Positions 1 through 46,501 of a DNA stretch of 53,498 nt are shown here, piece after piece. Source of the DNA: a virus (taxonomy: Duplodnaviria; Caudoviricetes); IMG/VR virus record IMGVR_UViG_3300031857_000256, positions 1-53,498 of that record; one strand, given 5' to 3'. The notes under the pieces were generated by a model. The model saw only the letters and a program-made list of their open reading frames with translations, had not been told where the DNA came from and made no database searches. The translations under genes and the position numbers were made by a program. How positions within the stretch are numbered: position 1 is the stretch's first letter; the number at the start of each line of letters is the position of its first letter.

Positions 1-1
1 A

Positions 2-337: not shown

Positions 338-338
338 G

Positions 339-2969: not shown

Positions 2970-2971
2970 TT

Positions 2972-3547: not shown

Positions 3548-3584
3548 GGATATATCTCTCAAATAACTAATCTTCCCTTTTCTA

Positions 3585-3617
3585 ATATTTATAAGTAACC
3601 TAAAATATATACTTATA
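3585..3617 (+). promoter_or_regulatory. Putative late-promoter motif, two copies (ATATTTATA 3585-3593; ATACTTATA 3609-3617)
   Basis: The same 9-mer recurs in most larger intergenic gaps of the window, upstream of a start codon. Confidence 0.6.
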
Positions 3618-4784
3618 ATGGCATTAGAAACTTTAATATATCCTGGTTCATCTTCGTTCTTTCCGGGACAAACTCCTTTTGGAATATATGATAACGATTA
3701 TGAGTTCCAAGAAGAAGCTCCAAAAGTGGCACTTTGGTGTGCTAGAAGATTGGGGTATCCTATTCAAAACATTGAACTTTTAGATGAAAATTTTTACGCT
3801 TGTTTAGAAGAAGCAGTATCAGAATACGGTGCGCAAGTAAATCAATTCAATATTCGTAATAATTTAGATGTTTTGAGAGGAAAAACAAAATCTACAAATC
3901 TTTCTAATAAATTAGTTCAAGGTTCAAATCTTCCAACATTAATTGGTATTTCGGATGCATATGGAACTTTAGCTGGTGTGGGTGGTAATACTGATATCAA
4001 AAAAGGATATGTAGAATTACAAGCCGGACAACAAGAATATGATTTAGATACACTATGGGGAGCTGTTTCTGAAAGTGGAAAACGTATAGAAATTGTAAAA
4101 GTATTCCATGAACCAGTACCTGCAATTAATAGATTCTTTGACCCTTATTCAGTAAGTGGACAGGGTACGTTAAACTTAATTGATGAATTTGGATTTGGTT
4201 CATTCTCACCGGCGGCACAATTTATATTGATGCCGATATTTGAGGATATGTTAAGAATTCAAGCTATTGAGTTTAATGACCAATTTAGAAAATCTGCATT
4301 TACGTTTAATATTGTAAATGGTAAGATTAGAGTATTTCCAAGACCAACATCTCAACATATAAATCTTTACGGAAAATTATATTTTGATTATTTTGTAAAA
4401 GACGATTTTACTGAAAATTCTACAAATATAACACCAAATGTAATTTCTGATTATTCGGATATCCCGTATGATTTTATGGAATTTGGTGGCATTAATGATG
4501 TTGGTAAACAGTGGATTAGAAAATATACTTTAGCATTGGTAAAGGAACTATTAGGAGCGGTTAGAGAAAAATATTCTCAAATTCCAATTCCTGGTTCTGA
4601 AATTAGTTTAGATGGTGCAGCGCTTAGAGCAGAAGCAACAACGGAAAAAGAATCACTTATGACACAATTAAGAGAAACTTTGGAAGAATTGGGAAGAACT
4701 AAACAATTTGAAAACCGAAATACGGAAGCTACTGCTCATCAAGAAATGTTACGAAAAGTTCCACTAGCAATTTATATAGGTTAA
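3618..4784 (+). CDS. Neck / head-tail adaptor protein (T4 gp13-like)
   Basis: RRLGYPIQNIEL near the N-terminus and WIRKYTLALVKELLGAVREKYSQIPIPG...LDG near the C-terminus match gp13-like neck proteins. First gene of a neck cluster. Confidence 0.8.
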   Translation: MALETLIYPGSSSFFPGQTPFGIYDNDYEFQEEAPKVALWCARRLGYPIQNIELLDENFYACLEEAVSEYGAQVNQFNIRNNLDVLRGKTKSTNLSNKLVQGSNLPTLIGISDAYGTLAGVGGNTDIKKGYVELQAGQQEYDLDTLWGAVSESGKRIEIVKVFHEPVPAINRFFDPYSVSGQGTLNLIDEFGFGSFSPAAQFILMPIFEDMLRIQAIEFNDQFRKSAFTFNIVNGKIRVFPRPTSQHINLYGKLYFDYFVKDDFTENSTNITPNVISDYSDIPYDFMEFGGINDVGKQWIRKYTLALVKELLGAVREKYSQIPIPGSEISLDGAALRAEATTEKESLMTQLRETLEELGRTKQFENRNTEATAHQEMLRKVPLAIYIG

Positions 4785-4788
4785 TATT

Positions 4789-5256
4789 ATGGCAAGATTT
4801 GCACTATCAAGAGATATAAAATTCTTTGAAGGTATATCCAGAGAATTAGTAGATGTGGTTATAGAAACCGCAGTTGTTCTTTACAAATTAATTGTAGAAG
4901 AAAGTAAGACTAATTTGTATGGAGAATCTTTAAATAAAACATATTATCAAGGTGTTGAATGTAGTGCGATAATTCAAAGAGATGAAACAACTGCAAATTA
5001 TGAAGGATTTGGTGTAGATGCAAATCAAAACGTACAATTTCGTTTTAATCGTTTTACACTTAAAGATAAAGATTTTTATCCAGAAGTTGGTGATATTATT
5101 TTTCATAATGAAGCATATTTTGAAATAGATAATGTAACGGAAGACCAATTAGTAGGTGGCAGAATTGAAACTGGAGATGGAGAAAAATTCTCTATCGTAT
5201 GTTCTACATTTATGACTAGAAGAAGTAGCATACAAACTGAAATGAGAATTGTATAA
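4789..5256 (+). CDS. Head-closure / neck protein (T4 gp14-like)
   Basis: NLYGES..K.Y, FG.D and PEVGDIIF...YFEI motifs; lies between gp13-like and gp15-like genes. Confidence 0.7.
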   Translation: MARFALSRDIKFFEGISRELVDVVIETAVVLYKLIVEESKTNLYGESLNKTYYQGVECSAIIQRDETTANYEGFGVDANQNVQFRFNRFTLKDKDFYPEVGDIIFHNEAYFEIDNVTEDQLVGGRIETGDGEKFSIVCSTFMTRRSSIQTEMRIV

Positions 5257-6317: not shown

Positions 6318-6670
6318 ATATACTAGATTTAAAAAATATAATGAAAGAAGTAAATGAGCCAAATGAATTTGTATTAGAAGTTCATGACTTGTTACATCCA
6401 TACTATTGGATTTTCAAAAAAGATAATTTAAGAATAAAAACATTATATAAGACTTTGGAAAAATTTAGAAAACCCACTGCAAGATTTGATGTTTTTATAA
6501 ATGGATTATTTATATCTGAAAATGATTATGAATATGAGAATATATCAAATACATTTTATTTAAAATTTAAAAAAGAAAGATTTCCTGAATTTGACCGCTT
6601 TGGTAATCCATATGAAATCGAAGTTACTGATGAAATAAAAATAAATGGAGATATAGAAATTTATAGATAA
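6314..6670 (+). CDS. Hypothetical virion protein (118 aa), similar to the C-terminal domain of the gp15-like protein
   Basis: ATGA overlap with the upstream stop; FDVFINGLFIS...TDEIKINGDI resembles FRIYINGDFIS...DDEIAITGKF. Confidence 0.7.
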   Translation: MNILDLKNIMKEVNEPNEFVLEVHDLLHPYYWIFKKDNLRIKTLYKTLEKFRKPTARFDVFINGLFISENDYEYENISNTFYLKFKKERFPEFDRFGNPYEIEVTDEIKINGDIEIYR

Positions 6671-7053
6671 TGGCGAGAAAATTACCAAATATAAATAGAG
6701 GAAACGATTTATTAAAAAGACAAAGATTGGAATTTAAAGATTTTGTGCTTAGAGTAAATACGGATACTTTTATTTATTCATATATACCGGACACACTTGA
6801 AGTAGTTGAAAATCTTTATTTTATACTAACATTACTAAATAAAAAATTTGTTTTTGATATTTTAGAAGTAGATGATGTTAGAGATTACATTGATGTATAT
6901 TTATTTGGAGTAAAACAACCACAAAGCAGATACAATGTAGAAGTTAGTGGAAATAATATAATTGTTACATTTGTTGCAGATGTTACTCGTTTACCAAATG
7001 AAGTACCTGCATCGGCATTTGAAATTAAAGGGAAAATAGTAGAAATAGTATAA
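6670..7053 (+). CDS. Hypothetical virion protein (127 aa), third copy of the same small beta domain
   Basis: TAATG overlaps at both ends; IDVYLFGVKQ...NNIIVTF...FEIKGKI. Confidence 0.7.
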   Translation: MARKLPNINRGNDLLKRQRLEFKDFVLRVNTDTFIYSYIPDTLEVVENLYFILTLLNKKFVFDILEVDDVRDYIDVYLFGVKQPQSRYNVEVSGNNIIVTFVADVTRLPNEVPASAFEIKGKIVEIV

Positions 7054-10000
7054 TGGCAAGACTGATACCTCGTAAACAGATAGAAGAACAACAGAATATT
7101 TCTGGTTCCCTTACCATACAACAAAATGTAGATATAGGTAATGATGCCATTATTTCTGGCTCACTTTTTGTATCAAAAAGTTTCTTTTTAGGAAATGATG
7201 TTACCGATAAAAGTGAAATTACAGGATCTGTATTTTTAACAGGTTCGTTAGAAATAGATGGACAACTTGTATTTAAAGGACCAGAAGCAGTTTTATCTGC
7301 AACTGCATCAAATACTTTATTGGCAGTGGATACTCAACGATATGCTGGTATTCTTGCAAAAGATTTTGGTGCTAACGTTCCTACACTTTATGTATCTTCA
7401 ACCGATGGTGACGATAATAATGATGGTAGAAGTATTCAATATCCACTTCGTACAATTAAAAGAGCGGCATCTTTAGCTTCTCCTGGGTACGATGGTAGAT
7501 ACGGCTTTGATACTGGCTCAATTTTTAATGGATATGTGATTAAAGTACAGGCTGGAACGTATTTAGAGGATAATCCTGTGATTCTTCCTAAAAATACAAC
7601 CATTTGGGGTGCAGGTCTGCGTATTACAAAAATCAACGCTAAGAATCCAACGGAAGACCTATTTTTAGTAAACTCTGGATGTTATATAGCAGAGGTTACT
7701 ATGGGTGGACTGAGATTATTTCCAGACCAAATAAATCCTGTAAAGGGGTTTGCTGTGGCTTTCCAACCAGGAGCGTTTATTACAACTTCCCCATACGTTC
7801 AGAACTGCTCGCAAATTTCAAACCAAGAGAATTCATTCACCGAACTTTACGAAGATATTCCACCAGGCGGCGGAGGTCTTTACGTTAATGGTGATGTGAT
7901 AGATCCAGATTCTCCGTTGGCTTCAATGGTATTGGATGCTTACACTCAAATTTCTCCAAACGGCGTAGGTTGTTTGGTTAATGGTAGAGGGTTCATTCAG
8001 TTGGTATCTTTCTTTAATAACTTTTCATATTATTCTATTAGAGTAAACAACGGTGGACATGCTACCCTAAACAACTCAAACATTTCGTTTGGTTTGTATG
8101 GTATGTACGCATCAGGTTCTCGTTTTATATCTGGTAGTGGTGGTAACATAGCAGCTAGAGATTCCGTAAGAGGGACTTGGAGTGTAGTTGTAGACGTGTT
8201 AAATAAAGGATTAGAAGCGGGATTACCTACAATTACAAAATTAAATACCGATGAAGGTATTCGTTTAACATCACCGGCATTATATACACAAAGTAGAGTA
8301 TCGGCGGGTACTACATTATCAACAACGGCAGCATCGGAAATAGCTTCTGATTATAAATTAATTAGTGCAATTGTAGAAAATGGTACTGCAGACTTTCCAA
8401 CATTATTGGCACAAAGTTCTAATAAAGGATATGGATTTGATTCCCCTTACAATATTTTAGGAGAAGTACAAATAACATCATCCATATCAGCAACAAATAC
8501 TGATTTAACAAATATAAGTGGTTCATATGCGGCATTATTAAGTATATTGGCAAACGGTACTGGTTCATTTACATTTAAATCAAATAATGAAGATGCAATT
8601 AAAGTAACAAATACCACGGAATATCCATTGGGAACTGCATCACCATTTACGGCGAGTGTGAGTTCTTCATTTAGTACTATAATTGATATTTTGAAAAATG
8701 GATTATCGGCAAGTCCGGTATTGGTTTCAAATACTAGTTCAAGTTTATTAATAGGAACTGGTTCTCAATATTTTACCGGAATATCATCATCTATTGCAGT
8801 TAGAAATTCGGTAAGTGCTAGTTTTGGTATAGTATATGGTGTTTTACAAAATGGAACTGGTAGTAACATATTACCAATACCTGAAAATCATCAAAGAGTT
8901 TATACGATAGTTAATAGTGGTAGTATTGGATTTAAATTTGATGATGTAAATAATTCATTAAATCCAACTCTAACTTTATTCAGAGGTGAAACGTATAAAT
9001 TTAATGTAGATGCTACAGACGAGTTTGGTGGATTATTTTATCCGTTTTGGATTAGAACTGCACAAATTGCAGATATCGGTACTAAATATGATTATAATAA
9101 AGGTGTAATAAATAATGGTGATAGTACTGGTACAATTACATTTACTGTACCATATGATGCACCTAATACTTTATATTATGTAGCGGATAATAATAGTGTA
9201 ATGGGTGGCAAGTTGAATATTGTAAATTCATCAACAACACCTAGATACTTAATTCAAAATACATTAACATATCCTGAAACAATTTTAAGTTCATCGATAG
9301 CAAGTACTGATGTTGATAAAATAAATGCTTATGATTTATTAATAGGAAATAAAGAGCTTGTAAAAGATGAAGTAGTAAGATTTGTAAATTCGTCTTGGTC
9401 TGATTTAGATTATAATCAAGAAACTTGTAAAAGAGATGTTGGATTTATTATAGATGGTGTAGCTAAAGACCTTTTATTTGGCGGTAATGAAGAAAGTTTA
9501 AGAAGTGCACTTTATTATTACATATATCCATCTGAAGCTACCACAACACAAAAAGAACCAACAACATCTGCTGTAAAATATGCAGCTGGGCTGGTTGATA
9601 AATTATTAAGCAATGTAACATTACAGTCTGCTAATAATGATAAATTGGCAGTAGCGGAATCTATTTTAGATAATAGAATATTTGTACAAAATGAAACAAT
9701 AGCATTTTTAAGTTCTTCTTGGAGTGGAGATGATGGGTTCTATTACAATGAAGAAAAATGTAAAAGAGATGTTGGTTACATTTTAGATGCGGTAGCAACT
9801 GATGCATTATATGGTGGAAATGAAAGAGCTATTACGGCTGCAAGATTTTATTACTTATATCCATCGGCAGCAACTGTAGCTGGAGTTCCATCTTCAACCG
9901 CACAATTAGAACAAACATTAACCGGTATTAGATATGCGGCGGGTGTAGTTGGTGCATTACTTAAAAATAAAACATTCCAAACAGCATCGGCTACAACACA

Positions 10001-13000
10001 AGCGGCATATGATTTATTAAAAGCTAACAAAGAATTAATTCAAAATGAAACAATTCAATTTATTAATGTAACATATCCTCAATTAAAATATAATCAAACT
10101 AAATGTAGACGTGATGTTGGTTATATAATTGATAGTGTTGCAACCGATTTATTATATGGTGGAAACGAAAGAGGTGTTGTATCTGGTAGAAACTATTATG
10201 CATATCCATCAATAGCAACTTCAATACAAAGGAGAGAAACAATTGCTGGTGTTAGATATGCTAAAATTATTGGAGATTATATTGTTCAAAATATTATATT
10301 AGATACACCTAGAATTGTTAATAATGATGAAAAAAATATTAAGGTAACTGCTTTAGAAAATATAACATCATCATTTAGTGGCACAATTACTGAAAAGGCT
10401 TTAATTAGTAGTTCGTTTTCAATTGTTGAGGGAATTATTAAAGGTGGGTTACAAGCCATTCCATCTGTATTGGCACAAAATACTAATCAAAATTGGGGAG
10501 AAGCTAATCCATTAAATGTAACATCAAATGTTCAAACTACAAGTTCGTATGTAACTCCAAACGAAATTAATACAATAGATAGAAATTTCGGAATCGTTAC
10601 AAACATTATAGATAATGGAATATCATTAGAACCTGTATTAACTTCATCATTAGATGGATTAATTAAAGTAACCGATATTGCTCAAATAAGTGGAACATCT
10701 GCAACAAATAATGAAACTGCAAGTATTAGTTCATCATTTGCATATGTAATGAATGTTATAGCCGGTGGATTGGGACAACTACAACCATTGGTATCTAATT
10801 TAAGTGCAAGTATTGTAGTAACAAATACACCATTCATATCATCAACTGCTGCAAGTGGTTCTATTGGAACTTCCATTAGTTCTTCAATGAATACTATTGC
10901 AACTATTATAAGTGGTGGATTAGGTGTAGTTCCTACATTAATTTCATCTGTAGCAAATAGTATTAAAGTAACAAACACACCTCAATACATTTCAGCATCT
11001 TATAGTGGAAGTTTAGAAGATGTATCGTTTGTATCCGCATCAATCGCTATTGTAACAAGTATAATTAAAGGTGGTCCATCTCCGGCCAAAGTAGTTTATA
11101 CAACACCAGTATCTACCGTAAACGCTAAAGCTTCTTACGATTTATTAAAGCAAAACATTCCATTTATACAAAATGAAACTATTGCATATTTGAGTTCGTC
11201 TTGGGCTGGATTTGAATACGATGAGGTTAAGTGTAAAAGAGATGTTGGTTTAATAATTAGTGGTGCGGCCGAAGACCTTATATGGAATTCAAATTCGGCA
11301 TCTATTGTAAATGGTGAATATTATTATGAATTCCCATCACAGGCAACCGATACACAACTAAATCAAACTTTAGATGGTATTAATTATGCTAGTAGATTAG
11401 CTCAAAAGTTAATACAAAATATAGAATTCAACACAGCACCTATTAACAACCAAAATGCCGATACTTTATTAAAGAACAACAAAGTATTCATACAAAACGA
11501 AACAATCGCTTATATGAGTTCTTCTTGGGGTTTATTTGAGTATAATGAAGCTAAATGTAGAAGGGATGTTGGATATATCATAGATGCGGTTAGAACTGAT
11601 ATCGTTTATGGTGGAAATGAAAGAACAATTGAAGCAGGTAGATACTATTATTTATATCCATCTGAAGCAACTAGCACTCAATTGCAACAAACTACCGATG
11701 CGATTAATTACGCAAGTAGATTGGCACAAAAAGTAGTAGCAAATACAACCTTTGTAGTAGCTGATACGAATGCTTTAAATGCAAGTAATTTACTATCTTT
11801 AAACAAATCATTAATAGCTAGTGAAGTTGTTGAGTATGTAAGTTCTTCTTGGAGTGGTGTTCAATACGATGAAAATAAATGTAAGAGAGATGTAGGATAT
11901 ATTTTAGAGGCAGTAAGAACTGACTTAGTTTATGGTGGTAACGAGAGAACTACAATAGCTGGGCAGTATTATTATCTATTCCCATCTGCAGCAACTGTTG
12001 GTGGTGAACCTACCGCAACTCAACAATTAGACCCAACAATAACTGGTGTAAATTATGCACGTAGATTAGCACAAAATATTGTATTAAATAAAACATTAGT
12101 TTCTCCAACTCAAGCTGTTTTAGATGCTAGAGAATTGGTAAAAACTAACACAACATTTATACAACAAAATGTAATTGAATATATTTCTGATACATACCCT
12201 ACATTGAATTACAAAGTAGATAAGTGTTTCAGAGATGTAAGATTTATTGTTGATGGAGTACTTACTGATTTGGTGTATGGTGGTAATGAGAGAAGTTTAC
12301 AATCAGGAGAATTCTATTACAAATATCCATCACAAGCAACCGATTCGCAAGCAAATGAAACAATAGATGCAATTAACTTTGCAAAAGAATTAAGTAAATT
12401 AATTGCAATTGGTGGTAAGGCTATTGAAGATGGATTTGATACTGTTGTAGATATTATTAGTAGTGGAAGTTTAGGTTATCCAACTTTAGTTTCAAATACT
12501 TTAGCTGGAATTAAAGCAACAAACGAACCACAATTTGTAACACAGAGTTCGGTATTAACATCGGATAAATCAATAGTATCCGCATCTTTTGGAAATGTAA
12601 TTAATATTATAGATAAGGGTGTAAATGTTATTCCAACTATTATATCTTCTACAAATAGAGGTATTAATAAACTTGGTAATGTTCAAACTACATCATCAAT
12701 AACTCCAGTTGCAACGGATATAAACAAAGTTGGAAGTGGATTTGATATTGTATTAAATATTATAGCAAACGGAACTGGTTCAATACCATCCAAAATCACA
12801 AACACATCATCTGTAATTAAGAGAACCGATAGTGTACAATATATTACAACGGCATCTATTTCATCAACATATTTAACAAATGCAAATTCTGCATTTGATA
12901 TCGTATTGGATGTTCTTGAAAATGGAACTGGTTCTTTACCTTCGTTGGTTAAAAATGTAAATGGTTTAGTTAAATTAACAAATAGTACGCAATATACATC

Positions 13001-16000
13001 TTCAATGAATGTTAGTAGTTCTAGAGTTAATAGTATCACTTCATCATTTAATACTGTTATAAACATATTAGAGAATGGAACTGGTTCGTTACCAAATATT
13101 ATTTCAAATAATTTTAATAATGTTAAAGTAACAAATGGATTAAATTATGTATCAGCATCTTATAGTGGCACATCGATACAATCTACATTTATATCGGCAT
13201 CAATTTCAATTGTAACAAATATAATTGCGAATGGAACTGGTAGTTTACCTAATATAACTTTATATACATCATCAATATCATCATCTGCTGTTTTAGATGC
13301 ATATAATATATTAAAAGCACATATACCATTTATACAAGATGAAACAATCGCATACTTGAGTTCTTCTTGGAGTACCGCATCTTATGATGAGGCTAAATGT
13401 AGACGTGATATTGGTTTAATTGTAAGTGGAGCAGCTGAAGACCTTATATGGAATTCAAATTCTGCCTCCGTTGTAAATGGTAAATATTATTATGAGTATC
13501 CATCGCAGGCGCAAGGTGCACAATTAAATCAAACGTTAGATGGTGTATTCTATGCAAGTAAATTGGCACAAAAAGTAATATTAAATACTTTATTTACTTT
13601 ACCAACACCACAAACAAATACGGCATATGATTTATTAATTAATAATAAAGAGTTTATCCAAAACGAAACAATTGCATACATTAGTTCTTCTTGGAGTACA
13701 AAGGAATATAACGAAACAACTTGTAAGAGAGATGTTGGTTATATATTAGATGCAATTGCAACTGATGTTAAATGGGGTGGTAACGAAAGAGCAGTAACTG
13801 CGGGAGTGTTCTATTATAAATATCCATCAGCGGCAACCGGCTCTCAATTAAAAGAAACTGTGACTGGTGTAACTTACGCTAAAAATTTAGCAGATAAGTT
13901 ATTAAGAAATGCACAATTCCAAAAAGTATCTCAAAACAAATTACAAGCTAAAGACCTTATTGTAAATAATAAGAGTTTTATAGAAAATGAAGTAATTGCA
14001 TATGTATCGGCTAGTTGGAGCGAGTTTTCATATAACGAAACAACTTGTAAGAGAGATGTTGGTTATATATTAGATGCTGTAGCAACTGATATTATTTATG
14101 GTGGAAATGAGAGAAGCTATGAGGCTGGTAGATATTATTATTACGAACCGTCAACAGCAACTACAACTCAATTAGGCCCAACGTTAAGTGGTGTTAAACA
14201 CGCTAAAGGGTTGACACAACAAATACTTAAAAATTTATTATTTGTTAAACCATCTAATTCTGCACAAATTGCATACGAACTATTATTTAATAATAAGGCA
14301 CTTATACAAAACGAAACAATCGCATTTGTAAGCTCTTCTTGGAGTATGTTTAATTACAATGATGTTAAGTGTAGACGTGATGTGGGATATATTGTAGATG
14401 CAGTAGCAACTGATATTCTTTATGGTGGTAATGAAAGAGTTTCTGAAGCAGGAGAATATTATTACTTATATCCATCATTAGCAACCGTTGAAGGTGATGG
14501 TAACGAATCCGGACAATTAGACCAAACATTGGATGGTGTTAAATACGCTAAAGGAATAGCACAAAAAATTGTAGCAAATACTTTATTACAAACACCAACA
14601 GAATCCGAAAGAGCTGGATATGATTTATTAATAAAGAATAAACAATTAATTCAAAAAGAAACTATTGCTTATATTAGTTCTTCTTGGAGTGGTATTGGTT
14701 CATTCTCTTATAATGAGGCAAGTTGTAGTAGAGATGTGGCTTACATTTTAGATAATGTAGCAACCGATTTATTATATGGTGGTAATGAAAGAAGTTCTAA
14801 AGCTGGTGAGTACTATTACTTATATCCATCTAAAGCAACTGTAATCAGTTCAATATCACCTGATACTAATTCTCAAAAAGGACCAACAATAGATGGTGTA
14901 ACCTTTGCTGCAGGAATAGCACAAACTATTTTAAATAATACTACATTAATACAACCAACCGATTATGTTAAATCGGCAGTAAGTTTATTAAAAGCAAATA
15001 GGCAATTTATACAAAATGAAACAATTCAATACATAGATGCATTCTTCCCTTACTTAACTTATTTAAGAGAAAAATGTAGACGTGATGTTGGATATATTGT
15101 TGATGGTGTAGCAACTGATTTATTCTATGGTGGAAACCAAAGAAGTATAACTTCTGGTGATTACTACTTTAGATATCCAAACAAAGCAACAACATCGGAC
15201 CAACTTTCAGAAACGGTATCCGGTATTGAATACGCTAAAGCAGTATCTAAAAAAGTAGTACAAAATATTTTATTAAGAAAGCCGGTTACTAAAGATAATA
15301 CATCCGCTAATATAAAGGCAACTGATACAAATCAATATACTTCATCTATAAATGTTAGTACAACTGAAATAAGTAAGATTAGTTCTTCATTCTCAATTGT
15401 AACTGATATAATAGCAGGTGGTGTTAGTGTATCTCCAATAAAAGTATTAAATACAGAAGCTGGAATTAAAGTAACCAATGAAACGGCAGTAACTTCATCT
15501 ATAAATGGTGGCAACACATATGCTGATTTAGTAACATCATCATTCAATTTAGTAAGAGATATTATTTACTATGGTGAAGCTGGTATACCTGATGCATTGG
15601 CTAGAAACTATGATTATGGTTTCGAATTACAAACTCCAACTTTATTACATATCAGTTCAACTGAACAAAGTGTAATAGGTGGAACTAATAATGCTAGTGA
15701 TTTGGTTGATGTTAGTGCCTCTTACGCAACTGTAATTGATATTGTTAATAATGGTACTGGTTCTATACCAACTATTATAGAAAATACATCATCATCAATA
15801 AATGTAATAGGTGGAACTCCATATCAATCTCCTGTAGCCGGTACAACTACTGATATAAATAAAATTGGTAGTGGATTTGGAATTGTAACTGATATAATTG
15901 AAGGAACTTATCCAACTGTTGTATCAAACACAACAAATGGTGTTAAGGTAACAACAACTCCTCAGATATTAATAAATGGTAGTACCGCACAAAGATTACA

Positions 16001-19000
16001 AGCTAAGTTAGTATCATCATCATTTGCGGTAGTAACAAATATTATCTTAAATGGTACTGGTTCTCAAACATATGTAGCACCATCGGCAACCGCAAATACT
16101 AATCCAAGAATAACATCAGCTTACAATTTATTAGTAAGTAATAGTTTAATGATTGTTGATGAGACTATAGCATATATGAGTTCATCTTGGAGTACATTTG
16201 ATTATAATGAAGAAAAATGTAGACGTGATTTAGGATATATTATTGATGGAGCAGCTTCTGACCTTTTATATGGTGGAAACTCTGGTTCATTCTTAAATGG
16301 ACAATTTTATTTATTAATACCATCACAAGCAACATCTTCTCAATTAGACCAAACTCTAACTGCTATTAGATATGCTAGTGGTATTTCTGAAAAGGTAATT
16401 CAGAGCCAATTATTAACACATATTTCAGCATCACAAAGTACATCAGCATCTTATGTATCATTATTAGAGAACAAAGAGTTCATACAAAACGAAGCAATTG
16501 CTTATGTATCTTCGTCTTGGTCAACATTTGATTATAATGAAACAACTTGTAGACGTGATGTGGGATATATTGTAGATGCGGTAGCAACTGACCTTTTATA
16601 TGGCGGTAATGAAAGAAGTTGGATAGCAGGAGATTACTATTTCAGATATCCATCACAGGCTACAACTTCACAATTACAACCAACATTAGATGGTATAAAT
16701 TACGCCAAAGGTGTGGCAATGAATGTAGCTAAAAATACTACATTTGTAACTGCTGATGTAAATACACAATTCTCTTATGATATTTTATTAGCAAATAAAG
16801 AGTTCATACAAAATGAAACTGTTGCATTTGTAAACGCTAAGTATCCTAACTTATATTATGACCAAATCAAATGTAAGAGAGATGTGGGATACATTGTAGA
16901 TGCAGTAGCAACTGATTTATTGTATGGTGGAAACGAAAGAGCAGCAATAGCTGGTGAGTTCTATTACTTATATCCTTCATTGGCAACTGAATCAGAGCAA
17001 GTAGTTGAAACAACTGCGGCAATTGATTATGCTAGAAGATTAAGTTTAGAAATAATTCAAAAGAATACCATTTCTACTCCACAAATTGTATCAAATACAT
17101 TTAATAATATCAAAGTAACAAATATATCACAAATAAGTGGTGTAGCGGCAACTCAAACTGAAGCAACTGCTATATCTTCTTCTATTGGTATTGTAATTGA
17201 TATCGTATCGAATGGTACTGGTTCATTACCAATATCAATTCCTTATACAACACCATCTACTGACCCTAATGTAATAAATGCATATAATAACTTAAAAGCT
17301 AATATACCATTTATCGCAGCAGAGACAGTTGCATATATAAGTTCGTCTTGGGTGACTGGTTCTAATTCGGATACGGCATTTGTTTACAATGATTTAAGTT
17401 GTAGTAGAGATGTTTCGTTGATTGTTAGTGGAGCAGCAGAAGATTTATTATGGAATAGTAATTCGGCATCTATTGTAAATGGTAAGTATTATTATGAATA
17501 TCCATCACAAGCAACCAATACACAATTGGATGAAACATTGGATGGTATTTCTTACGCATCTCAATTAGCACAAAAGATTGTATTGAATACATTGTTTGTA
17601 ACCGCATCACCAACCGCTTCAGCAGTTTACAACGCATTAAAAACCAACAAACCATTCATACAAGCAGAAACAATAGCATTTGTATCTTCATCTTGGAGTT
17701 CATTAAATTATAGTGAAGCTAAATGTAAGAGAGATGTTGGTTTAATAGTGGATGCAGTAGCAACTGATATTCTTTACGGAGGAAATCAAAGAAGTGCAAC
17801 TGCTGGACAATATTATTTCAAATATCCATCACAAGCTACTGGTTCTCAATTAGATTCAACATTGAACGCAATTGATTTCGCAGGTGGTACGGCTAAGAAT
17901 GTAATTACAAACACAACATTTGTAACTGCATCTCAATCAGTATCAGCATCGGTTGAATTATTAAGAAACAATAGATTATTCATACAAAATGAAACTATGG
18001 CTTACTTAACTGCTAGCTGGAGTTCATTTGAATATAACAAAGAGAAGTGTAAGAGAGATGTTGGTTATATCTTAGATGGTGTAGCAACTGATATCTTATA
18101 TGGTGGTAATGAACGAAGTGTAATGAGTGGAGATTTCTATTACAAATATCCTTCAAAGGCAACTTTATTAGGAGATGGTGATGGTGTGGGTCAATTAGGA
18201 CAAACTTTAGATGGTATTATTTACGCAAGTAGAATAGCTCAAAAAGTTGCACAAAATATACAATTCGTAACAGCATCATCAGCAGTATCTGCCTCATTTG
18301 ATTTGTTGAGAAAGAATAAAAATTTCATAGCAGCTGAAACTATCGCTTATGTTAGTTCTTCTTGGAGTGGAGTTTATTATAATGAAGCAAGTTGTTCACG
18401 TGATGTGAAATATATCATAGACGCGGCGGCAACCGATTTATTATATGGTGGAAGTGAAAGAAGCGTAACCGCTGGTTCATACTATTTCTTATTCCCATCA
18501 AAAGCAACTGTAAAAGGTGTACCATCTGAGGCAGCACAATTAGACCCAACAATTACAGGCGTAAGATATGCTGGTAAATTGGCAAGTAAGGTTGTAACAA
18601 ACCCAACTTTCATATTACCATCAGCATCTCTATTAACAACTGTTAATTTATTAACATCGAATAAACCATTAATACAAAAAGAAACTATAACATTCTTGAG
18701 TTCTTCTTGGAGTACATTGAAGTATAATGAAACGAGTTGTTCTCGTGATTTAGGATTTATTATAGACGCGATTAGAACTGACTTAGTTTATGGTGGTAAC
18801 GAAAGAAGTATTGAAGCAGGTTCTTATTATTATAAGATTCCATCTGTTGCAATTAAAGAATCATATACTGATAACGGCGAAGCTGGACAAAAAATCCAAA
18901 CTGTTGATGGTATTGATTTCGCAAGAGGCCTTTCTGAAAAGATTGTTTCAAACACTTTATTAACTTATCTAGCACCATCTACAAAGAGAAGACAAGCGGC

Positions 19001-19601
19001 TGATAGATTGAGAGGTTCTAAAGATGAATTAAGACAAAGAGCAATCGGATACACAAACGGAGCATTCCCTTATTTAGTTTATAACGAAGCGAGTTGTTCT
19101 CGTGATACTGGTTTGATTGTTGATGCTTGTTGTACTGATTTATTATATGGTGGAAACGAAAGAGGTATTGCAGCGGCATCATCTTACTATAATGGTCAAT
19201 ACGGTAACGCAATTGCCGTAACTAGAGACCAACTTTTAGAGACTTTGGAAACTAATAGATATTTAAGAACAAGAGCAGAGTTTATAGCAGCTGGAGCACC
19301 ATTAGAATCATTTGGTTCATTGATTGTGGCAACTGGTATTGACTACTCTTATAATGGTAGTGGTGTTACGTTTAAAGCACTTCCACCGAATCAGGGTGGT
19401 AGTGGTGTTGCAAATCCGGCATTTGAAATTACCGAATTGGGTGGTGGTAGAATTTACTTTACATCTGGTAACGAAACTGGTGACTTTAGAATTGGTACGG
19501 GATTAAGTATTAATCAGGCAACTGGTACTCTTGTGGGTAGAACATTTAGTAAATCTCTATTCTCATTGGTAACTCCGTTCTCATTGGCACTACAAATATA
19601 A
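7053..19601 (+). CDS. Giant virion structural protein (4182 aa): pectin-lyase-like beta-helix scaffold interrupted by 22 phycobiliprotein/globin-like CxRD repeats
   Basis: Uninterrupted 12.5-kb ORF. N-terminal LYVS..GDDNNDG..P.RTIKRA..I.V.AGTY.E.NP and SPYVQNCS motifs; C-terminal GG.IYFTS..E.GDFRIG..L.INQATGT, resembling large structural proteins of T4-like marine phages; 22 CxRD repeats counted. Confidence 0.85.
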   Translation: MARLIPRKQIEEQQNISGSLTIQQNVDIGNDAIISGSLFVSKSFFLGNDVTDKSEITGSVFLTGSLEIDGQLVFKGPEAVLSATASNTLLAVDTQRYAGILAKDFGANVPTLYVSSTDGDDNNDGRSIQYPLRTIKRAASLASPGYDGRYGFDTGSIFNGYVIKVQAGTYLEDNPVILPKNTTIWGAGLRITKINAKNPTEDLFLVNSGCYIAEVTMGGLRLFPDQINPVKGFAVAFQPGAFITTSPYVQNCSQISNQENSFTELYEDIPPGGGGLYVNGDVIDPDSPLASMVLDAYTQISPNGVGCLVNGRGFIQLVSFFNNFSYYSIRVNNGGHATLNNSNISFGLYGMYASGSRFISGSGGNIAARDSVRGTWSVVVDVLNKGLEAGLPTITKLNTDEGIRLTSPALYTQSRVSAGTTLSTTAASEIASDYKLISAIVENGTADFPTLLAQSSNKGYGFDSPYNILGEVQITSSISATNTDLTNISGSYAALLSILANGTGSFTFKSNNEDAIKVTNTTEYPLGTASPFTASVSSSFSTIIDILKNGLSASPVLVSNTSSSLLIGTGSQYFTGISSSIAVRNSVSASFGIVYGVLQNGTGSNILPIPENHQRVYTIVNSGSIGFKFDDVNNSLNPTLTLFRGETYKFNVDATDEFGGLFYPFWIRTAQIADIGTKYDYNKGVINNGDSTGTITFTVPYDAPNTLYYVADNNSVMGGKLNIVNSSTTPRYLIQNTLTYPETILSSSIASTDVDKINAYDLLIGNKELVKDEVVRFVNSSWSDLDYNQETCKRDVGFIIDGVAKDLLFGGNEESLRSALYYYIYPSEATTTQKEPTTSAVKYAAGLVDKLLSNVTLQSANNDKLAVAESILDNRIFVQNETIAFLSSSWSGDDGFYYNEEKCKRDVGYILDAVATDALYGGNERAITAARFYYLYPSAATVAGVPSSTAQLEQTLTGIRYAAGVVGALLKNKTFQTASATTQAAYDLLKANKELIQNETIQFINVTYPQLKYNQTKCRRDVGYIIDSVATDLLYGGNERGVVSGRNYYAYPSIATSIQRRETIAGVRYAKIIGDYIVQNIILDTPRIVNNDEKNIKVTALENITSSFSGTITEKALISSSFSIVEGIIKGGLQAIPSVLAQNTNQNWGEANPLNVTSNVQTTSSYVTPNEINTIDRNFGIVTNIIDNGISLEPVLTSSLDGLIKVTDIAQISGTSATNNETASISSSFAYVMNVIAGGLGQLQPLVSNLSASIVVTNTPFISSTAASGSIGTSISSSMNTIATIISGGLGVVPTLISSVANSIKVTNTPQYISASYSGSLEDVSFVSASIAIVTSIIKGGPSPAKVVYTTPVSTVNAKASYDLLKQNIPFIQNETIAYLSSSWAGFEYDEVKCKRDVGLIISGAAEDLIWNSNSASIVNGEYYYEFPSQATDTQLNQTLDGINYASRLAQKLIQNIEFNTAPINNQNADTLLKNNKVFIQNETIAYMSSSWGLFEYNEAKCRRDVGYIIDAVRTDIVYGGNERTIEAGRYYYLYPSEATSTQLQQTTDAINYASRLAQKVVANTTFVVADTNALNASNLLSLNKSLIASEVVEYVSSSWSGVQYDENKCKRDVGYILEAVRTDLVYGGNERTTIAGQYYYLFPSAATVGGEPTATQQLDPTITGVNYARRLAQNIVLNKTLVSPTQAVLDARELVKTNTTFIQQNVIEYISDTYPTLNYKVDKCFRDVRFIVDGVLTDLVYGGNERSLQSGEFYYKYPSQATDSQANETIDAINFAKELSKLIAIGGKAIEDGFDTVVDIISSGSLGYPTLVSNTLAGIKATNEPQFVTQSSVLTSDKSIVSASFGNVINIIDKGVNVIPTIISSTNRGINKLGNVQTTSSITPVATDINKVGSGFDIVLNIIANGTGSIPSKITNTSSVIKRTDSVQYITTASISSTYLTNANSAFDIVLDVLENGTGSLPSLVKNVNGLVKLTNSTQYTSSMNVSSSRVNSITSSFNTVINILENGTGSLPNIISNNFNNVKVTNGLNYVSASYSGTSIQSTFISASISIVTNIIANGTGSLPNITLYTSSISSSAVLDAYNILKAHIPFIQDETIAYLSSSWSTASYDEAKCRRDIGLIVSGAAEDLIWNSNSASVVNGKYYYEYPSQAQGAQLNQTLDGVFYASKLAQKVILNTLFTLPTPQTNTAYDLLINNKEFIQNETIAYISSSWSTKEYNETTCKRDVGYILDAIATDVKWGGNERAVTAGVFYYKYPSAATGSQLKETVTGVTYAKNLADKLLRNAQFQKVSQNKLQAKDLIVNNKSFIENEVIAYVSASWSEFSYNETTCKRDVGYILDAVATDIIYGGNERSYEAGRYYYYEPSTATTTQLGPTLSGVKHAKGLTQQILKNLLFVKPSNSAQIAYELLFNNKALIQNETIAFVSSSWSMFNYNDVKCRRDVGYIVDAVATDILYGGNERVSEAGEYYYLYPSLATVEGDGNESGQLDQTLDGVKYAKGIAQKIVANTLLQTPTESERAGYDLLIKNKQLIQKETIAYISSSWSGIGSFSYNEASCSRDVAYILDNVATDLLYGGNERSSKAGEYYYLYPSKATVISSISPDTNSQKGPTIDGVTFAAGIAQTILNNTTLIQPTDYVKSAVSLLKANRQFIQNETIQYIDAFFPYLTYLREKCRRDVGYIVDGVATDLFYGGNQRSITSGDYYFRYPNKATTSDQLSETVSGIEYAKAVSKKVVQNILLRKPVTKDNTSANIKATDTNQYTSSINVSTTEISKISSSFSIVTDIIAGGVSVSPIKVLNTEAGIKVTNETAVTSSINGGNTYADLVTSSFNLVRDIIYYGEAGIPDALARNYDYGFELQTPTLLHISSTEQSVIGGTNNASDLVDVSASYATVIDIVNNGTGSIPTIIENTSSSINVIGGTPYQSPVAGTTTDINKIGSGFGIVTDIIEGTYPTVVSNTTNGVKVTTTPQILINGSTAQRLQAKLVSSSFAVVTNIILNGTGSQTYVAPSATANTNPRITSAYNLLVSNSLMIVDETIAYMSSSWSTFDYNEEKCRRDLGYIIDGAASDLLYGGNSGSFLNGQFYLLIPSQATSSQLDQTLTAIRYASGISEKVIQSQLLTHISASQSTSASYVSLLENKEFIQNEAIAYVSSSWSTFDYNETTCRRDVGYIVDAVATDLLYGGNERSWIAGDYYFRYPSQATTSQLQPTLDGINYAKGVAMNVAKNTTFVTADVNTQFSYDILLANKEFIQNETVAFVNAKYPNLYYDQIKCKRDVGYIVDAVATDLLYGGNERAAIAGEFYYLYPSLATESEQVVETTAAIDYARRLSLEIIQKNTISTPQIVSNTFNNIKVTNISQISGVAATQTEATAISSSIGIVIDIVSNGTGSLPISIPYTTPSTDPNVINAYNNLKANIPFIAAETVAYISSSWVTGSNSDTAFVYNDLSCSRDVSLIVSGAAEDLLWNSNSASIVNGKYYYEYPSQATNTQLDETLDGISYASQLAQKIVLNTLFVTASPTASAVYNALKTNKPFIQAETIAFVSSSWSSLNYSEAKCKRDVGLIVDAVATDILYGGNQRSATAGQYYFKYPSQATGSQLDSTLNAIDFAGGTAKNVITNTTFVTASQSVSASVELLRNNRLFIQNETMAYLTASWSSFEYNKEKCKRDVGYILDGVATDILYGGNERSVMSGDFYYKYPSKATLLGDGDGVGQLGQTLDGIIYASRIAQKVAQNIQFVTASSAVSASFDLLRKNKNFIAAETIAYVSSSWSGVYYNEASCSRDVKYIIDAAATDLLYGGSERSVTAGSYYFLFPSKATVKGVPSEAAQLDPTITGVRYAGKLASKVVTNPTFILPSASLLTTVNLLTSNKPLIQKETITFLSSSWSTLKYNETSCSRDLGFIIDAIRTDLVYGGNERSIEAGSYYYKIPSVAIKESYTDNGEAGQKIQTVDGIDFARGLSEKIVSNTLLTYLAPSTKRRQAADRLRGSKDELRQRAIGYTNGAFPYLVYNEASCSRDTGLIVDACCTDLLYGGNERGIAAASSYYNGQYGNAIAVTRDQLLETLETNRYLRTRAEFIAAGAPLESFGSLIVATGIDYSYNGSGVTFKALPPNQGGSGVANPAFEITELGGGRIYFTSGNETGDFRIGTGLSINQATGTLVGRTFSKSLFSLVTPFSLALQI
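8151..19290 (+). repeat. Interleaved protein repeats: 22 cores of ~100-110 aa (CxRD...YGGNER) and 22 units of ~45-50 aa (SxSFxxVxxIIxxG)
   Basis: Counted in the translation. First core Cys codon at 9426, last at 19095. Confidence 0.85.
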
Positions 19602-19628: not shown

Positions 19629-20546
19629 ATGGCAGAAGTTTTTGTACCGTTAAACCGATTCCAGTCAGTAGTAACAAATCTGACTGGCGAGCAAGATGAA
19701 ATTTATATAACCCCGGCCGGAGTATCATCAATTGTGCTATCAGCGCAAATTACCAATAATGATTTAATAGTTCAGCCGGTTACGATATTGGTAACATCTA
19801 ATAGAGAATTACCTGTGCCAAGATTTGAAACAATATATAGTGGTAGTTCATTTATAAGTTCTTCTGTATCTTTATTAAATTTTAGCGGTAGTTTTGCTAG
19901 TGCATCTTTATTATTAAATGCAAATAGACAATTTTTAAGAAAAGAAATAGCAGCCTATACTCAAAACCAAAATAATTTATCGGAAACTCCATTTACCTTT
20001 ATATCATCATATTTTGAACAAAATACATTAGATGATGTGGATGCAATAAAATATGATATTGCAAATAACACAACTAGTAGAACAAATAAAGCGGCAAAAG
20101 CGTATTTTGATAAAAATGGGGTATCCGCAATCGCTTCAACTGAATATTCTGCATCAATATTTGCTTTAGATTATTTAAAAGTATTATCAAATCAAATTAT
20201 AAAAAATGAATCTGTAACGGGTTCTGCTCAAGTTGAATTAATATACCAAAACACGGTAACACAATCTATATTATCCGGATTCAATAATGGAACAAGTAAC
20301 GAAGTATCAGCATCTATATATGTAGTAAATTCTTTAGTAGATGTTATCAAAGCAACTATTGAAAGCCCTGTATTTGTTGAACAAGAACCGGTTAAATTGG
20401 TTACAAATGTAACAATACCGGCTGCGGATTCACTTTCACCGGTAGTTTCTGGTAAATTAGTATTAGAAGAAGGTTATGGTTTTATAGTTTCCGGCTCAAC
20501 AAATCTATCGGTAGTCCTATCTTTACTTGAATCTGCGAATGAATAA
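19629..20546 (+). CDS. Fibre adaptor-like protein (305 aa), paralogue of 33189..33521 with an inserted Cys-less globin-like repeat
   Basis: N-terminal (IYITPAGVSSIVLSAQITN) and C-terminal (LVTNVTIPAADSL...GKLVLEEG...VVLSLLE) parts align with the 110-aa protein. The middle resembles the cores of the 4182-aa protein. Confidence 0.7.
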   Translation: MAEVFVPLNRFQSVVTNLTGEQDEIYITPAGVSSIVLSAQITNNDLIVQPVTILVTSNRELPVPRFETIYSGSSFISSSVSLLNFSGSFASASLLLNANRQFLRKEIAAYTQNQNNLSETPFTFISSYFEQNTLDDVDAIKYDIANNTTSRTNKAAKAYFDKNGVSAIASTEYSASIFALDYLKVLSNQIIKNESVTGSAQVELIYQNTVTQSILSGFNNGTSNEVSASIYVVNSLVDVIKATIESPVFVEQEPVKLVTNVTIPAADSLSPVVSGKLVLEEGYGFIVSGSTNLSVVLSLLESANE

Positions 20547-44188: not shown

Positions 44189-46501
44189 ATGGCAGAAAGA
44201 ATCGTATCACCTGGAGTATTTACGAGAGAAAATGACCTTTCCTTCTTAGCGCAAGGAATTGGTGAAATTGGCGGAGCATTTATAGGACCTTTTAAACAAG
44301 GACCTGCTTTCGTTCCAACAATCGTAAGAACACAATCAGAATTTGAAACAATATTCGGTACACCGGATGGAACTTTTTACACAGAGTATGCAGTTCAGAA
44401 CTATTTAAGAGAAGCTGGTTCTGCTACTATTGTAAGAGTTGCCGGTACTGAAGGATATACACAAAACGCACCAGTAGGTATATTTGCCAGTGGTAGTGGT
44501 TTTGGTGATAAATTAGTTGGTGTATTATTTAATACTAAAGTTGGAGCAACGTATCAAGCGATTGACTCAACTGGTAGTATTTTAGATAATATAGCCGATA
44601 AGGGTTCATTTATTATAAAAGGAAATGAATTTGGTGGAACAACTGGTATATCAGCATCTATTCTTCCATCTGATGTGAACGATTTAAAAGATGTATTTGG
44701 CGAATCTCCATTTGGTAGTAAAAATGCATATGCTTATCTATATTTTGAAAGTAGTGCATCTCTATTCCCAACAACCGATACTTTTTCTTCAGTTTATTCT
44801 CAAATTTTACCTGACCAAGATTTTACCGATGAAGCATTATCTGCTGTAACTCCTTGGATTAAATCTCAAGTAATTAGTGGTGATAGATATGACCTTTTCC
44901 GTTTCCATACAATTGGACAAGGTGAGGTTTATAACAAAAAATATAAAGTAAGTATTTCTAATGTTAAGGCTGCCGGTGAAGATGGTTCTACGGACTATGC
45001 AACTTTCACTGTAACTTTAAGAGGATATGGTGATACTGATAGAAGAAAGAGTGTAATTGAACAATGGGGTAATGTAAATTTAGACCCATCATCTCCAAGA
45101 TACATCGCTAGAGTAATTGGTGATAGATATTTCACAATTGATAACAATGGTAAAATAACTGAAAATGGTGATTACTCAAATAAATCACTTAACGTATGGG
45201 TAGAAGTTTCTGAAGCGGGTTCATTCCCTATTTCAGCAGCACCGTTTGGACATGGGGCATACACTAACCCTGTTAGAGTATCTGCGGCAACTAAAGTTCC
45301 TGCGGTAGTTTACCAAACCGGTTCAGCGGCTAACAATTCATCATCTCCAATATATTTTAGTGGATTTGATTATGAATCAGTAGGTGCTGTAACTGATAAC
45401 ACACAATATTTAAAACCAATACCTACAAGTGCTGGTACTGGTGCAAACGTAGCATTCGCATTTGATTCTCAATTGAGTTATCAACTGACAGGTTCTGCGG
45501 CATCGGATATGGTTAAAAGACAATTCGTTGTAGCATTCCAAGGTGGTTTTGATGGTGTAAATCCGATTGTAAGATTAGCGAAAGCTGGTGATGCAGATTG
45601 GGGAGCTGGTAACAATCAAGGATTGAATTGTACTAACTTAACATCAGCAGGTTCACAAGCATATGTTAAAGCAATAAACGCACTTTCTAATCCAGATGAA
45701 TACGATATTAATTTAGTTGCAGCACCTGGTATTAATAGAGAACTTCACCCAGCGGTAACACAAAAGTTAATTGATATGTGTGAAGAAAGACAAGATTGTT
45801 TCTACATCGCTGACTTTACTGATTATCAATCTTCAATTACAACCGCAACTGAGCAAGCTAATTCAGTAGATTCAAACTATGTAGCTTGTTATTATCCTTG
45901 GTTAAAAACGATAGATGTTAATACTAATAAATTAACAACCGTTCCACCATCAGTATTATTACCTGCAGTATTTGCAAGTAGTGATAGATTGGCGGCTGAG
46001 TGGTTCGCACCTGCTGGTTTGAATAGAGGTGGTATTACCGGAGCAGTTAGTGTATTGAATAGATTAACACATTCTGAAAGAGATACTCTATATGAGAACA
46101 AAGTAAATCCAATTGCATCATTCCCTGGACAAGGTATTGTAGCATTCGGACAGAAAACATTGCAAGATAAAGCATCTGCATTAGATAGAATCAACGTAAG
46201 AAGATTACTTATCGCTGTTAAGAAGTTTATTGCATCTACATCTAGATATTTAGTATTTGAACAAAATACTGCAGAAACTAGAAGCAGATTCATTAACACT
46301 GTGAATCCTTATTTGGAATCAATTCAACAAAGACAAGGTTTATACGCTTTCAACGTTGTAATGGATGATTCAAATAACACACCGGATGTAATTGATAGAA
46401 ACATATTAGCTGGAGCAATTTACTTACAGCCTACGAAGACTGCGGAATTCATCATAATTGATTTCAACATTCTTCCAACTGGAGCATCATTCTCAGCATA
46501 A
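44189..46501 (+). CDS. Contractile tail sheath protein (T4 gp18-like)
   Basis: SPGVFTRENDLS N-terminus; YYPW, EWFAPAGLNRG, RDTLYENKVNPIASFPGQG..AFGQKTL, RINVRRL, FEQN, LQPTKTAEFI motifs. Confidence 0.97.
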   Translation: MAERIVSPGVFTRENDLSFLAQGIGEIGGAFIGPFKQGPAFVPTIVRTQSEFETIFGTPDGTFYTEYAVQNYLREAGSATIVRVAGTEGYTQNAPVGIFASGSGFGDKLVGVLFNTKVGATYQAIDSTGSILDNIADKGSFIIKGNEFGGTTGISASILPSDVNDLKDVFGESPFGSKNAYAYLYFESSASLFPTTDTFSSVYSQILPDQDFTDEALSAVTPWIKSQVISGDRYDLFRFHTIGQGEVYNKKYKVSISNVKAAGEDGSTDYATFTVTLRGYGDTDRRKSVIEQWGNVNLDPSSPRYIARVIGDRYFTIDNNGKITENGDYSNKSLNVWVEVSEAGSFPISAAPFGHGAYTNPVRVSAATKVPAVVYQTGSAANNSSSPIYFSGFDYESVGAVTDNTQYLKPIPTSAGTGANVAFAFDSQLSYQLTGSAASDMVKRQFVVAFQGGFDGVNPIVRLAKAGDADWGAGNNQGLNCTNLTSAGSQAYVKAINALSNPDEYDINLVAAPGINRELHPAVTQKLIDMCEERQDCFYIADFTDYQSSITTATEQANSVDSNYVACYYPWLKTIDVNTNKLTTVPPSVLLPAVFASSDRLAAEWFAPAGLNRGGITGAVSVLNRLTHSERDTLYENKVNPIASFPGQGIVAFGQKTLQDKASALDRINVRRLLIAVKKFIASTSRYLVFEQNTAETRSRFINTVNPYLESIQQRQGLYAFNVVMDDSNNTPDVIDRNILAGAIYLQPTKTAEFIIIDFNILPTGASFSA

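Follow-up and report, generated by a model that had tools for sequence, protein, structure and literature searches.

A giant myovirus fibre protein probably built of nested, split globin-like domains

Distant segments of one polypeptide are known to form a single structure in several settings. In the coiled-coil hairpin with a split head of SMC/Rad50 proteins and in the needle of phage T4 gp37, the chain runs out, reverses and returns; in nested (discontinuous) domain insertion, the familiar cases combine unrelated domains at a depth of one to three levels. Among virion proteins, giant 'short tail fiber' and virion structural proteins have been described in T4-like cyanophages (S-RSM4, S-PM2, S-H9-1, S-CAM1 and others) and belong to phrog_4527, 5342 and 701. 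Here we analyze P0001, a protein of 4182 amino acids (aa) encoded by a single open reading frame (ORF) in the viral record IMGVR_UViG_3300031857_000256 (Caudoviricetes); the window analyzed is this whole record, 53,498 bases with an estimated completeness of 26%. P0001 contains two kinds of repeats, a core with a CxRD motif (hereafter C) and a unit with one amphipathic helix (H). With the cyanophage proteins it shares the C core, at ~24-37% identity, a likeness also found at the profile level and in BFVD; the sequence match is limited to the cores (query aa 310-735 of 767), H rows were not detected there, and the blockwise nested order of units described below was seen only in P0001's own family. 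We conclude that P0001 is probably a phage virion fibre of nested split globin-like domains. This analysis establishes how many units there are and in what order, and that H and C numbers stay equal across many changes of number; it also establishes the nested co-evolution of the units and confident predictions for whole fragments.

From these results we infer that H and C units touch each other, that partners belong to a single chain, and that the fibre is tree-shaped and adhesive. In the arrangement that we propose, the repeat region would not be a string of independent beads; each C core, with four to five helices and an invariant CxRD, would be completed by one H unit, a short strand-bearing linker plus one amphipathic helix donated to a distant core, under the rule that the last-opened unit is the first closed. 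The chain would run outward along a row of H units, turn, and come back along a row of cores, giving a ladder of two strands with rungs made of one H and one C each. Five arms of 3, 4, 6, 3 and 1 rungs would stand on a five-rung stem (H1-C22, H2-C21, H6-C20, H17-C19 and H18-C18), and the N-terminal domain and the C-terminal tail would meet at the root, presumably the point of attachment to the virion.

A regular expression for CxRD finds 22 C cores in blocks of 3, 4, 6, 3 and 6; one for the H helix gives 23 matches, of which one (aa 1723) lies inside core C7 and the remaining 22 form blocks of 5, 5, 6, 5 and 1. Unit hidden Markov models (HMMs) recover exactly HHHHHCCCHHHHHCCCCHHHHHHCCCCCCHHHHHCCCHCCCCCC, that is, H5 C3 H5 C4 H6 C6 H5 C3 H1 C6. 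Thus, both methods agree with the 22 H and 22 C units, and with their order, that the first-pass annotation had read from the stretch 8151..19290, which is contained within the ORF. The depth profile that it had derived by counting H as an opening and C as a closing bracket (5,2,7,3,9,3,8,5,6,0, never negative and ending at zero) follows arithmetically from the unit order. The sequence variants that it had tied to this topology are present as well: SGAAEDL[IL]WNSNSAS in C4, C8 and C17 and partly in C14, helices of the SxSI type (H10, H16 and H22) preceding the first three of these cores, and [YF]PxLxY in place of SSSW in C3, C7, C13, C16 and C22. In one protein, such a pattern is weak evidence because about a quarter of random arrangements never become negative (24.5% of random compositions when 22+22 units are divided into 5+5 blocks, and 144 of 600 when the observed block sizes are permuted). 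The gene is laid out as follows, with arms and stem as predicted.

7053..19601, + strand: the giant fibre gene, a single open frame encoding P0001, with PHROG matches
7053..8090, + strand: N-terminal domain without repeats (aa 1-346), where the tree is predicted to be rooted; its MARLIP start is conserved in relatives
8091..8891, + strand: H1-H5 (HMM); H1 and H2 predicted in the stem (with C22 and C21), H3-H5 in arm 1 (with C3-C1)
8892..9323, + strand: non-repeat insert of 144 aa (aa 614-757) at tip 1, between H5 and C1; a gap between HMM matches
9324..10316, + strand: C1-C3 (CxRD at aa 792, 903 and 1018; HMM)
10323..11105, + strand: H6-H10 (HMM); H6 predicted in the stem (with C20), H7-H10 in arm 2
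11127..12419, + strand: C4-C7, forming with H7-H10 the closed bracket 10503..12419 that was folded
12351..13271, + strand: H11-H16, arm 3 (HMM); H11 is a helix-only unit that overlaps the end of C7
13296..15293, + strand: C8-C13 (CxRD, HMM)
15297..16088, + strand: H17-H21 (HMM); H17 and H18 predicted in the stem, H19-H21 in arm 4
16113..17087, + strand: C14-C16 (CxRD, HMM)
17094..17252, + strand: H22 (HMM), the one-rung arm 5 with C17
17277..19310, + strand: C17-C22 (CxRD, HMM); C18-C22 predicted to close the stem
19311..19598, + strand: C-terminal tail of 96 aa, predicted to lie beside the N-terminal domain; it matches the end of phrog_3442

A search for relatives with aa 1090-1800 of P0001 gave 478 matches among 1694 scored candidates, of which the 120 listed were analyzed. 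In the first count, H equalled C in 96 of 121 proteins among the matches listed, the mismatches being ORFs cut at contig ends or off by one through missed units. With 96 further loci (22 viral and 74 metagenomic) and HMMs rebuilt from all matches, the set comprised 139 full-length proteins. The off-by-one cases all bear, straight after a core, a helix-only unit of the H11 type (in P0001, H11 is fused to the last helix of C7) that the HMM had overlooked; such units were added by a post hoc regular expression before the final count, and other gaps of 44-53 aa, when inspected, contained no H helix. With these units included, H equals C in 138 of the 139 full-length relatives, at 15/15 to 28/28 units, and 21 of the 22 distinct unit orders are balanced and never negative, so that the equality holds in homologues with other repeat numbers, where the first-pass annotation had suggested looking for it. 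A search for shorter proteins (425 matches among 7997 candidates, 120 listed, mostly fragments; 13 inspected) yielded two complete mini-relatives, P0211 (1092 aa) and P0226 (1086 aa), each consisting of the N-terminal domain, H4 C4 and the tail; the four H units of P0226 include one that the HMM missed and that was identified by reading. In the sequences compared, the bracket balance across relatives is far beyond chance.

The balance is also kept locally: H6C6 swaps with H5C5, H7C7, H6C4H4C6 and H4C2H4C6; H5C4 swaps with H4C3, H6C5 and H8C7; and H1C6 swaps with H2C7 and H3C8. On a tree of the non-repeat ends, the number of H units changes at least 46 times, that of C units at least 47 times and the difference H minus C once, counts that may be inflated, and are to that extent a point against our reading, as the tree is a rough FastTree of recombining phage genes. 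These data bear on an alternative in which H and C fold independently as linear beads on a string, the equal counts reflecting C+H ancestry and recombination of balanced cassettes, and the nested signal reflecting co-inheritance. Relatives of ~25% identity that share the tail (L018:8087-17719, P0240, P0236 and P0235) have the organization N-domain-(C-H)n-tail with strict alternation; therefore, C and H probably formed one contiguous ancestral domain of ~160 aa, which, as the sequences suggest, the P0001 family probably nested. Such an ancestor suits the bead model, as do the frequency, already given, with which a never-negative order arises by chance in P0001 and the presumed ability of one recombination between neighbouring cores to convert H5 C3 H1 C6 into H5 C8. 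Conversely, the steps from H6C6 to H5C5 or H7C7, from H1C6 to H2C7 to H3C8, and from H5C4 to any of its three substitutes need separate events in the H row and the C row with the balance kept, and a single change of H minus C stands against the dozens of changes in each number. We consider independent beads very unlikely, a judgement to which the coupling between units and the predicted structures also contribute.

To identify the partners, we used a mirror-tree approach on the 55 non-identical proteins among 61 with the canonical order: distance matrices were built for the 44 unit positions, the shared phylogenetic signal was removed, and the residuals were correlated. The mean residual correlation (r) for the nested pairing is 0.395, compared to -0.023 +/- 0.041 for random one-to-one pairings (0 of 200,000 reach 0.395), 0.125 for parallel order in the same arms and 0.14 for a shift of one. 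First-in-first-out pairing, at 0.024, was rejected. Thus, covariation between H and C units, which had been put forward as a check of the topology, follows the nested pairing. For 14 H units the bracket partner tops the 22 candidate cores, and for 18 it is among the top two; unconstrained optimal assignment returns 16 of the 22 bracket pairs; and the signal is robust to rank correlation, to the dropping of 1-5 principal components and to random halving of the data (200 of 200 halves). Coupling is apparent in the stem (H2-C21 +0.48, H1-C22 +0.40, H6-C20 +0.32, H18-C18 +0.58), in arm 1 (H3-C3 +0.4), in arm 2 (H10-C4, H9-C5 and H8-C6 each +0.7, H7-C7 +0.44), in arm 3 (H12-C12 +0.47 and H16-C8 +0.4, each rank 1) and in arm 5 (H22-C17 +0.7, rank 1).

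The pattern along the chain is informative with respect to the bead model. H9 and C5 couple at +0.7, yet the intervening H10 and C4 couple to H9/C5 at +0.2 to +0.3, and therefore simple linkage along the chain is disfavoured; likewise, H12 couples to C12 and not to the nearer C8-C11 (-0.2 to 0.0), so that coupling does not decay with distance. The description of P0001 as a linear tandem repeat (solenoid or beads on a string) fails, given that the halves lie in separate blocks and the coupling tracks bracket partners rather than neighbours. Two other pairings were tried and rejected. If C instead opens the bracket and H closes it, the predicted pairs have residual r between about -0.2 and +0.3 (H6-C3 at +0.1 and H12-C6 at -0.1, for example), and in an antiparallel homodimer with the H units of one chain on the C units of the other, the unit strings are, on inspection, non-complementary.

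At the level of residues, mutual information with average product correction, calculated on 3076 pairs from 138 proteins, gives a mean of 0.167 over the top 20 inter-unit residue pairs for nested partners, compared to 0.077 for shifted, 0.032 for first-in-first-out and 0.029 for random pairings. The strongest pairs join H-helix columns 33 and 36 to columns 81-88 of the last helix of the core. It is this specificity, together with a phycocyanin match (see below) that covers the CxRD helix and the long helix after it but no more, with space left for one helix, that argues against a second alternative, under which the H and C rows are length-matched rods lying side by side, the cores being complete and the H helices staying outside. 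Mere length matching would demand equal counts and antiparallel order just as well, and Foldseek gave no globin or phycobiliprotein match for the predicted model; nevertheless, we rate side-by-side rods as the least probable of the alternatives. Linkers fit the predicted branching, too. A longer linker with an aromatic-Pro motif precedes the predicted arm bases H3, H7 and H19, whose partners are the [YF]PxLxY cores; across the family, a long junction linker is found at 386 of 411 predicted arm-base H units versus 140 of 1897 other positions, and the one preceding H7 stays at the second H of its block in the H4C3, H5C4, H6C5, H7C6 and H8C7 variants.

AlphaFold2 was run on nested fragments, as the first-pass annotation had proposed. 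For H7-H10+C4-C7 (639 aa), the mean predicted local distance difference test score (pLDDT) is 85.5 and the predicted template modelling score (pTM) 0.80, with an alignment of 70 rows (2 window rows and 68 of 124 fragments, kept at <92% identity); for H17 to C19 (15297..18278, 994 aa), a bracket enclosing two arms, the corresponding values are 83.8 and 0.69, with the window sequence and 40 of 49 fragments aligned. Confidence in the bodies as wholes is in line with the nested arrangement, in which H and C would be in physical contact. In them, an H unit is one 20-residue helix with an ordered linker, and a core has four to five helices. The H units reach pLDDT of ~85-94 and the H-row linkers ~90, the latter only within the body of pTM 0.80, which is another argument against independent beads. 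Beta-bridge residues are confined to the linkers between H units and between C cores, and both their number and their length agree with antiparallel pairing. A two-chain prediction of C21-C22 (aa 3845-4101) with H1-H2 (aa 340-470), on a 30-row alignment each, returned scores of 0.00, 0.81 and 0.00 and counts neither for nor against the nested arrangement.

Neither unit counts nor co-evolution can separate pairing within a chain from pairing between chains, and the same nested one-to-one pairing could join subunits of a domain-swapped dimer or trimer, making a bundle instead of a single-chain tree. Phage fibres are usually trimers, and one of the alternating relatives, P0240, begins with a fibre N-terminus of the Mtd_N type (PF18454, E 4.5e-13) that also matches phage hyaluronidase N-termini. 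We find this version unlikely, considering that closed brackets modelled as single chains are already predicted with confidence as whole bodies (pTM 0.80 and 0.69), that the tight H-to-C turns of ~15 aa favour in-chain pairing at least at the tips, and that a global swap over five arms and a stem would be topologically awkward.

Several observations weigh against the nested single-chain arrangement. The predicted stem rung H17-C19 is uncoupled (r 0.0, rank 13 of 22), and the partners of H13, H14 and H20 rank only 4-5. Co-inherited balanced recombination cassettes could imitate co-evolution. New junctions created by duplication have no junction linker. L016, at 21 versus 22 units, is unbalanced, the sole such case among the full-length relatives, and in the distant alternating C-H relatives equal numbers are trivial. 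The AlphaFold2 alignments are shallow (70 and 41 rows), the first mixing paralogous brackets; the folds covered H+C fragments only; and secondary-structure strings are the sole basis for assigning H-C contacts and beta-bridge partners in the models. As a separate observation, L016 carries an extra insertion within its final C row, after a 149-aa gap.

The core had been called globin-like in the first-pass annotation, and profile searches agree in part. The score of PF00502 (phycobilisome protein) exceeds the cut-off in the relatives P0158, P0060 (its C7) and P0240 (26.5-37.7 bits versus 22.2 bits), and among 70 fragments this model is matched at E <= 1 in 23 (best 1.3e-6), next to 28 with matches to FAM195 that were judged chance. 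A profile of contiguous C+H units (A7) and one of 44 diverse cores (A8) retrieve phycocyanins from PDB at marginal E of 0.046-0.5 and 0.098-0.24, respectively, with phycocyanin alpha chains as best or second-best matches; the alignment is centred on AKC[VA]RD[VI]GYY, with a weak second stretch on the next long helix. The cores of the window itself miss the Pfam model: P0001 does not match PF00502 at E <= 0.1 or E <= 10, neither does its H4C4 fragment, and a profile built from the window cores only (A3) has 0 matches in PDB. The phycocyanin alignment stops before what we take to be the last globin helix and therefore fits a core without its terminal helix, the one to be supplied by H. Sequence comparison thus suggests that C cores resemble the middle of phycobiliprotein-type globins.

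At the level of the fold, no PDB entry reached E <= 0.001 in a Foldseek search with the eight-unit H7-H10+C4-C7 model, and the 50 matches listed, all-helical noise with TM at most 0.13, included no globin; the incomplete globin is thus a reading from sequence. A structure search of BFVD produced 9 matches at E <= 0.001, only homologous pieces of the cyanophage giant proteins, and one of the ESM Atlas with H10+C4 only generic phage-tail clusters with scores <=0.90. Compared to phycobiliproteins, the C core is shorter (~106 versus ~160 aa), is without at least the terminal helix and is repeated 4-28 times per chain within a virion fibre. What the two have in common, beyond the PF00502 matches of relatives, is the CxRD site, aligned with that of phycocyanin alpha and present in all 22 window cores and in 3074 of the 3076 cores from 138 proteins. 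CxRD is the covalent bilin-attachment motif of phycobiliproteins and of the BBAG-1/3 globins, which attach bilins lyase-free, according to PMC10151467.

Genes for bilin synthesis occur in related phages, a possible further link to phycobiliproteins and BBAGs. Ferredoxin-dependent bilin reductase (PF05996) was detected in 3 of the 10 related viral records searched, namely, both of those at 100% completeness and the single one at 70%, but neither in the one at 64% nor in any of the six at 20-41%. Among four records searched, heme oxygenase (PF01126) adjoins it in the same three (those of L003, L010 and L005; G001:95819-96926, G002:243389-244533 and G003:130750-131857). The two genes are far from the fibre gene, and neither was found in the window record at its 26% completeness. 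No CpeT, CpeS or AlaS-type aminotransferase was found in the related records searched, and the four records searched for a lyase and for a psbA-type gene had none. In two of the cassette-bearing genomes, the sole PF00502-like stretch, a sub-threshold one, is within the fibre ORF.

That three genomes encode both heme oxygenase and bilin reductase does not prove bilin binding. Going by the motif and the core likeness, we tentatively raise the possibility that the fibre is a biliprotein, in which the 22 CxRD cores would each covalently bind a phage-made bilin, giving virions with pigmented, possibly light-responsive branched fibres. For cassettes of this type in a phage proposed to infect alphaproteobacteria, PMC11480375 regards light harvesting as unlikely and leaves the use of the bilin open, naming a bilin-binding globin as one possibility. 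If the fibre is a biliprotein, it would be a phage-encoded acceptor for the bilins of phages whose hosts have no phycobilisomes. The use of phage-made bilins in phages that show no sign of cyanobacterial infection becomes directly testable, because phycobiliprotein/BBAG-like cores with a near-invariant CxRD are found together with heme oxygenase and bilin reductase in complete related genomes.

The non-repeat parts of P0001 were examined separately. Pfam searches with the whole protein, its N-terminal domain, the insert, a single core, an H row and the tail gave nothing credible; the N-terminal domain has a weak pectate-lyase-like match (PF12708, E 0.0025), under the cut-off, and in PDB a best E of 0.002 over 58 aa, nothing useful. 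The tip-1 insert, missing from some relatives, matches nothing in Pfam and has 0 PDB sequence matches; its identification as cupredoxin-like was dropped, being unsupported by any search. The tail is conserved even in the ~25%-identity relatives with alternating units, and a PDB sequence search with it gave nothing useful. In the proposed tree, extra domains would sit at tips and junctions, able to face the host. The relative P0014 carries an F5/8 type C (discoidin) domain (PF00754, E 7.6e-13, aa 3507-3622) at the H18-H19 junction. Gaps of ~157, 333 and 415 aa inside H rows or at H-to-C tips of relatives mark further extra domains. Sub-threshold matches of relatives to Wza_C (PF18412), DUF3850 and FAM195 are short, helical and judged chance.

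Assignment of P0001 to tail-fibre or virion structural proteins follows from profile matches to phrog_4527 (5.5e-196), phrog_5342 (5.4e-178) and phrog_701 (2.6e-68), families annotated as tail fibre, short tail fibre and virion structural protein, and from its location in a tail and structural gene module. Two genes mark this neighbourhood.

3618..4784: head-tail adaptor-like gene
44189..46501: tail sheath gene

Judging by gene content, the region is a fibre gene cluster of a large myovirus, and P0001 would be a giant virion fibre protein of this uncultured virus, presumably with the role of an adhesive fibre. Directly downstream of its gene, a 305-aa ORF (19629-20546, + strand) carries, at aa 92-197, a single C-like core that is divergent (E 1.3e-12 with the core HMM), has no CxRD and lies between weakly H-like sequences; by sequence, the protein might cap the fibre or serve as a separate partner with one rung. 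Two other giant, fibre-like ORFs (20616-31496 and 33534-43187, both + strand; 3626 and 3217 aa) contain neither H nor C units. They have long collagen-like Gly-X-Y runs (aa 2414-3445 of the former, aa 228-627 of the latter), which account for the numerous spurious antisense ORFs in these regions and for a G+C content that rises to 0.46-0.50, and the end of the 3217-aa protein presumably resembles fibre C-terminal chaperone domains. At the DNA level, Flavobacterium phages and a single Microcystis phage are only faintly similar (~70% over ~225 bases) to the structural genes in window positions 1-7000.

In the literature searched, with paper supplements outside its coverage, we found no description of this architecture or of virion proteins that bind bilins or contain bilin-type globins. 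If the proposed arrangement is right, a single polypeptide would follow a balanced-bracket grammar, with recursive two-piece domains, up to nine deep and branched, making rigid rods, a likeness closer to RNA secondary structure than to the protein repeat architectures known to us. Giant repeat proteins would then be parsed differently, because counting and pairing half-domains predicts topology. The evolution of fibre length would be explained by matched gains and losses, and the family would offer a natural scaffold with arm length adjustable by single rungs. The mini-relatives P0211 and P0226 are small enough for whole-protein folding or structure solution. Against the background of known systems, SMC/Rad50 and T4 gp37 have one hairpin and one split domain, whereas in the P0001 family a chain would contain as many as 28 split domains, branched at several points and nested to a depth of at most nine. 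With nested domain insertion, the family would share the interruption of one domain by another complete domain; the difference is that P0001 would insert the same two-piece domain into itself recursively, thereby building rods.

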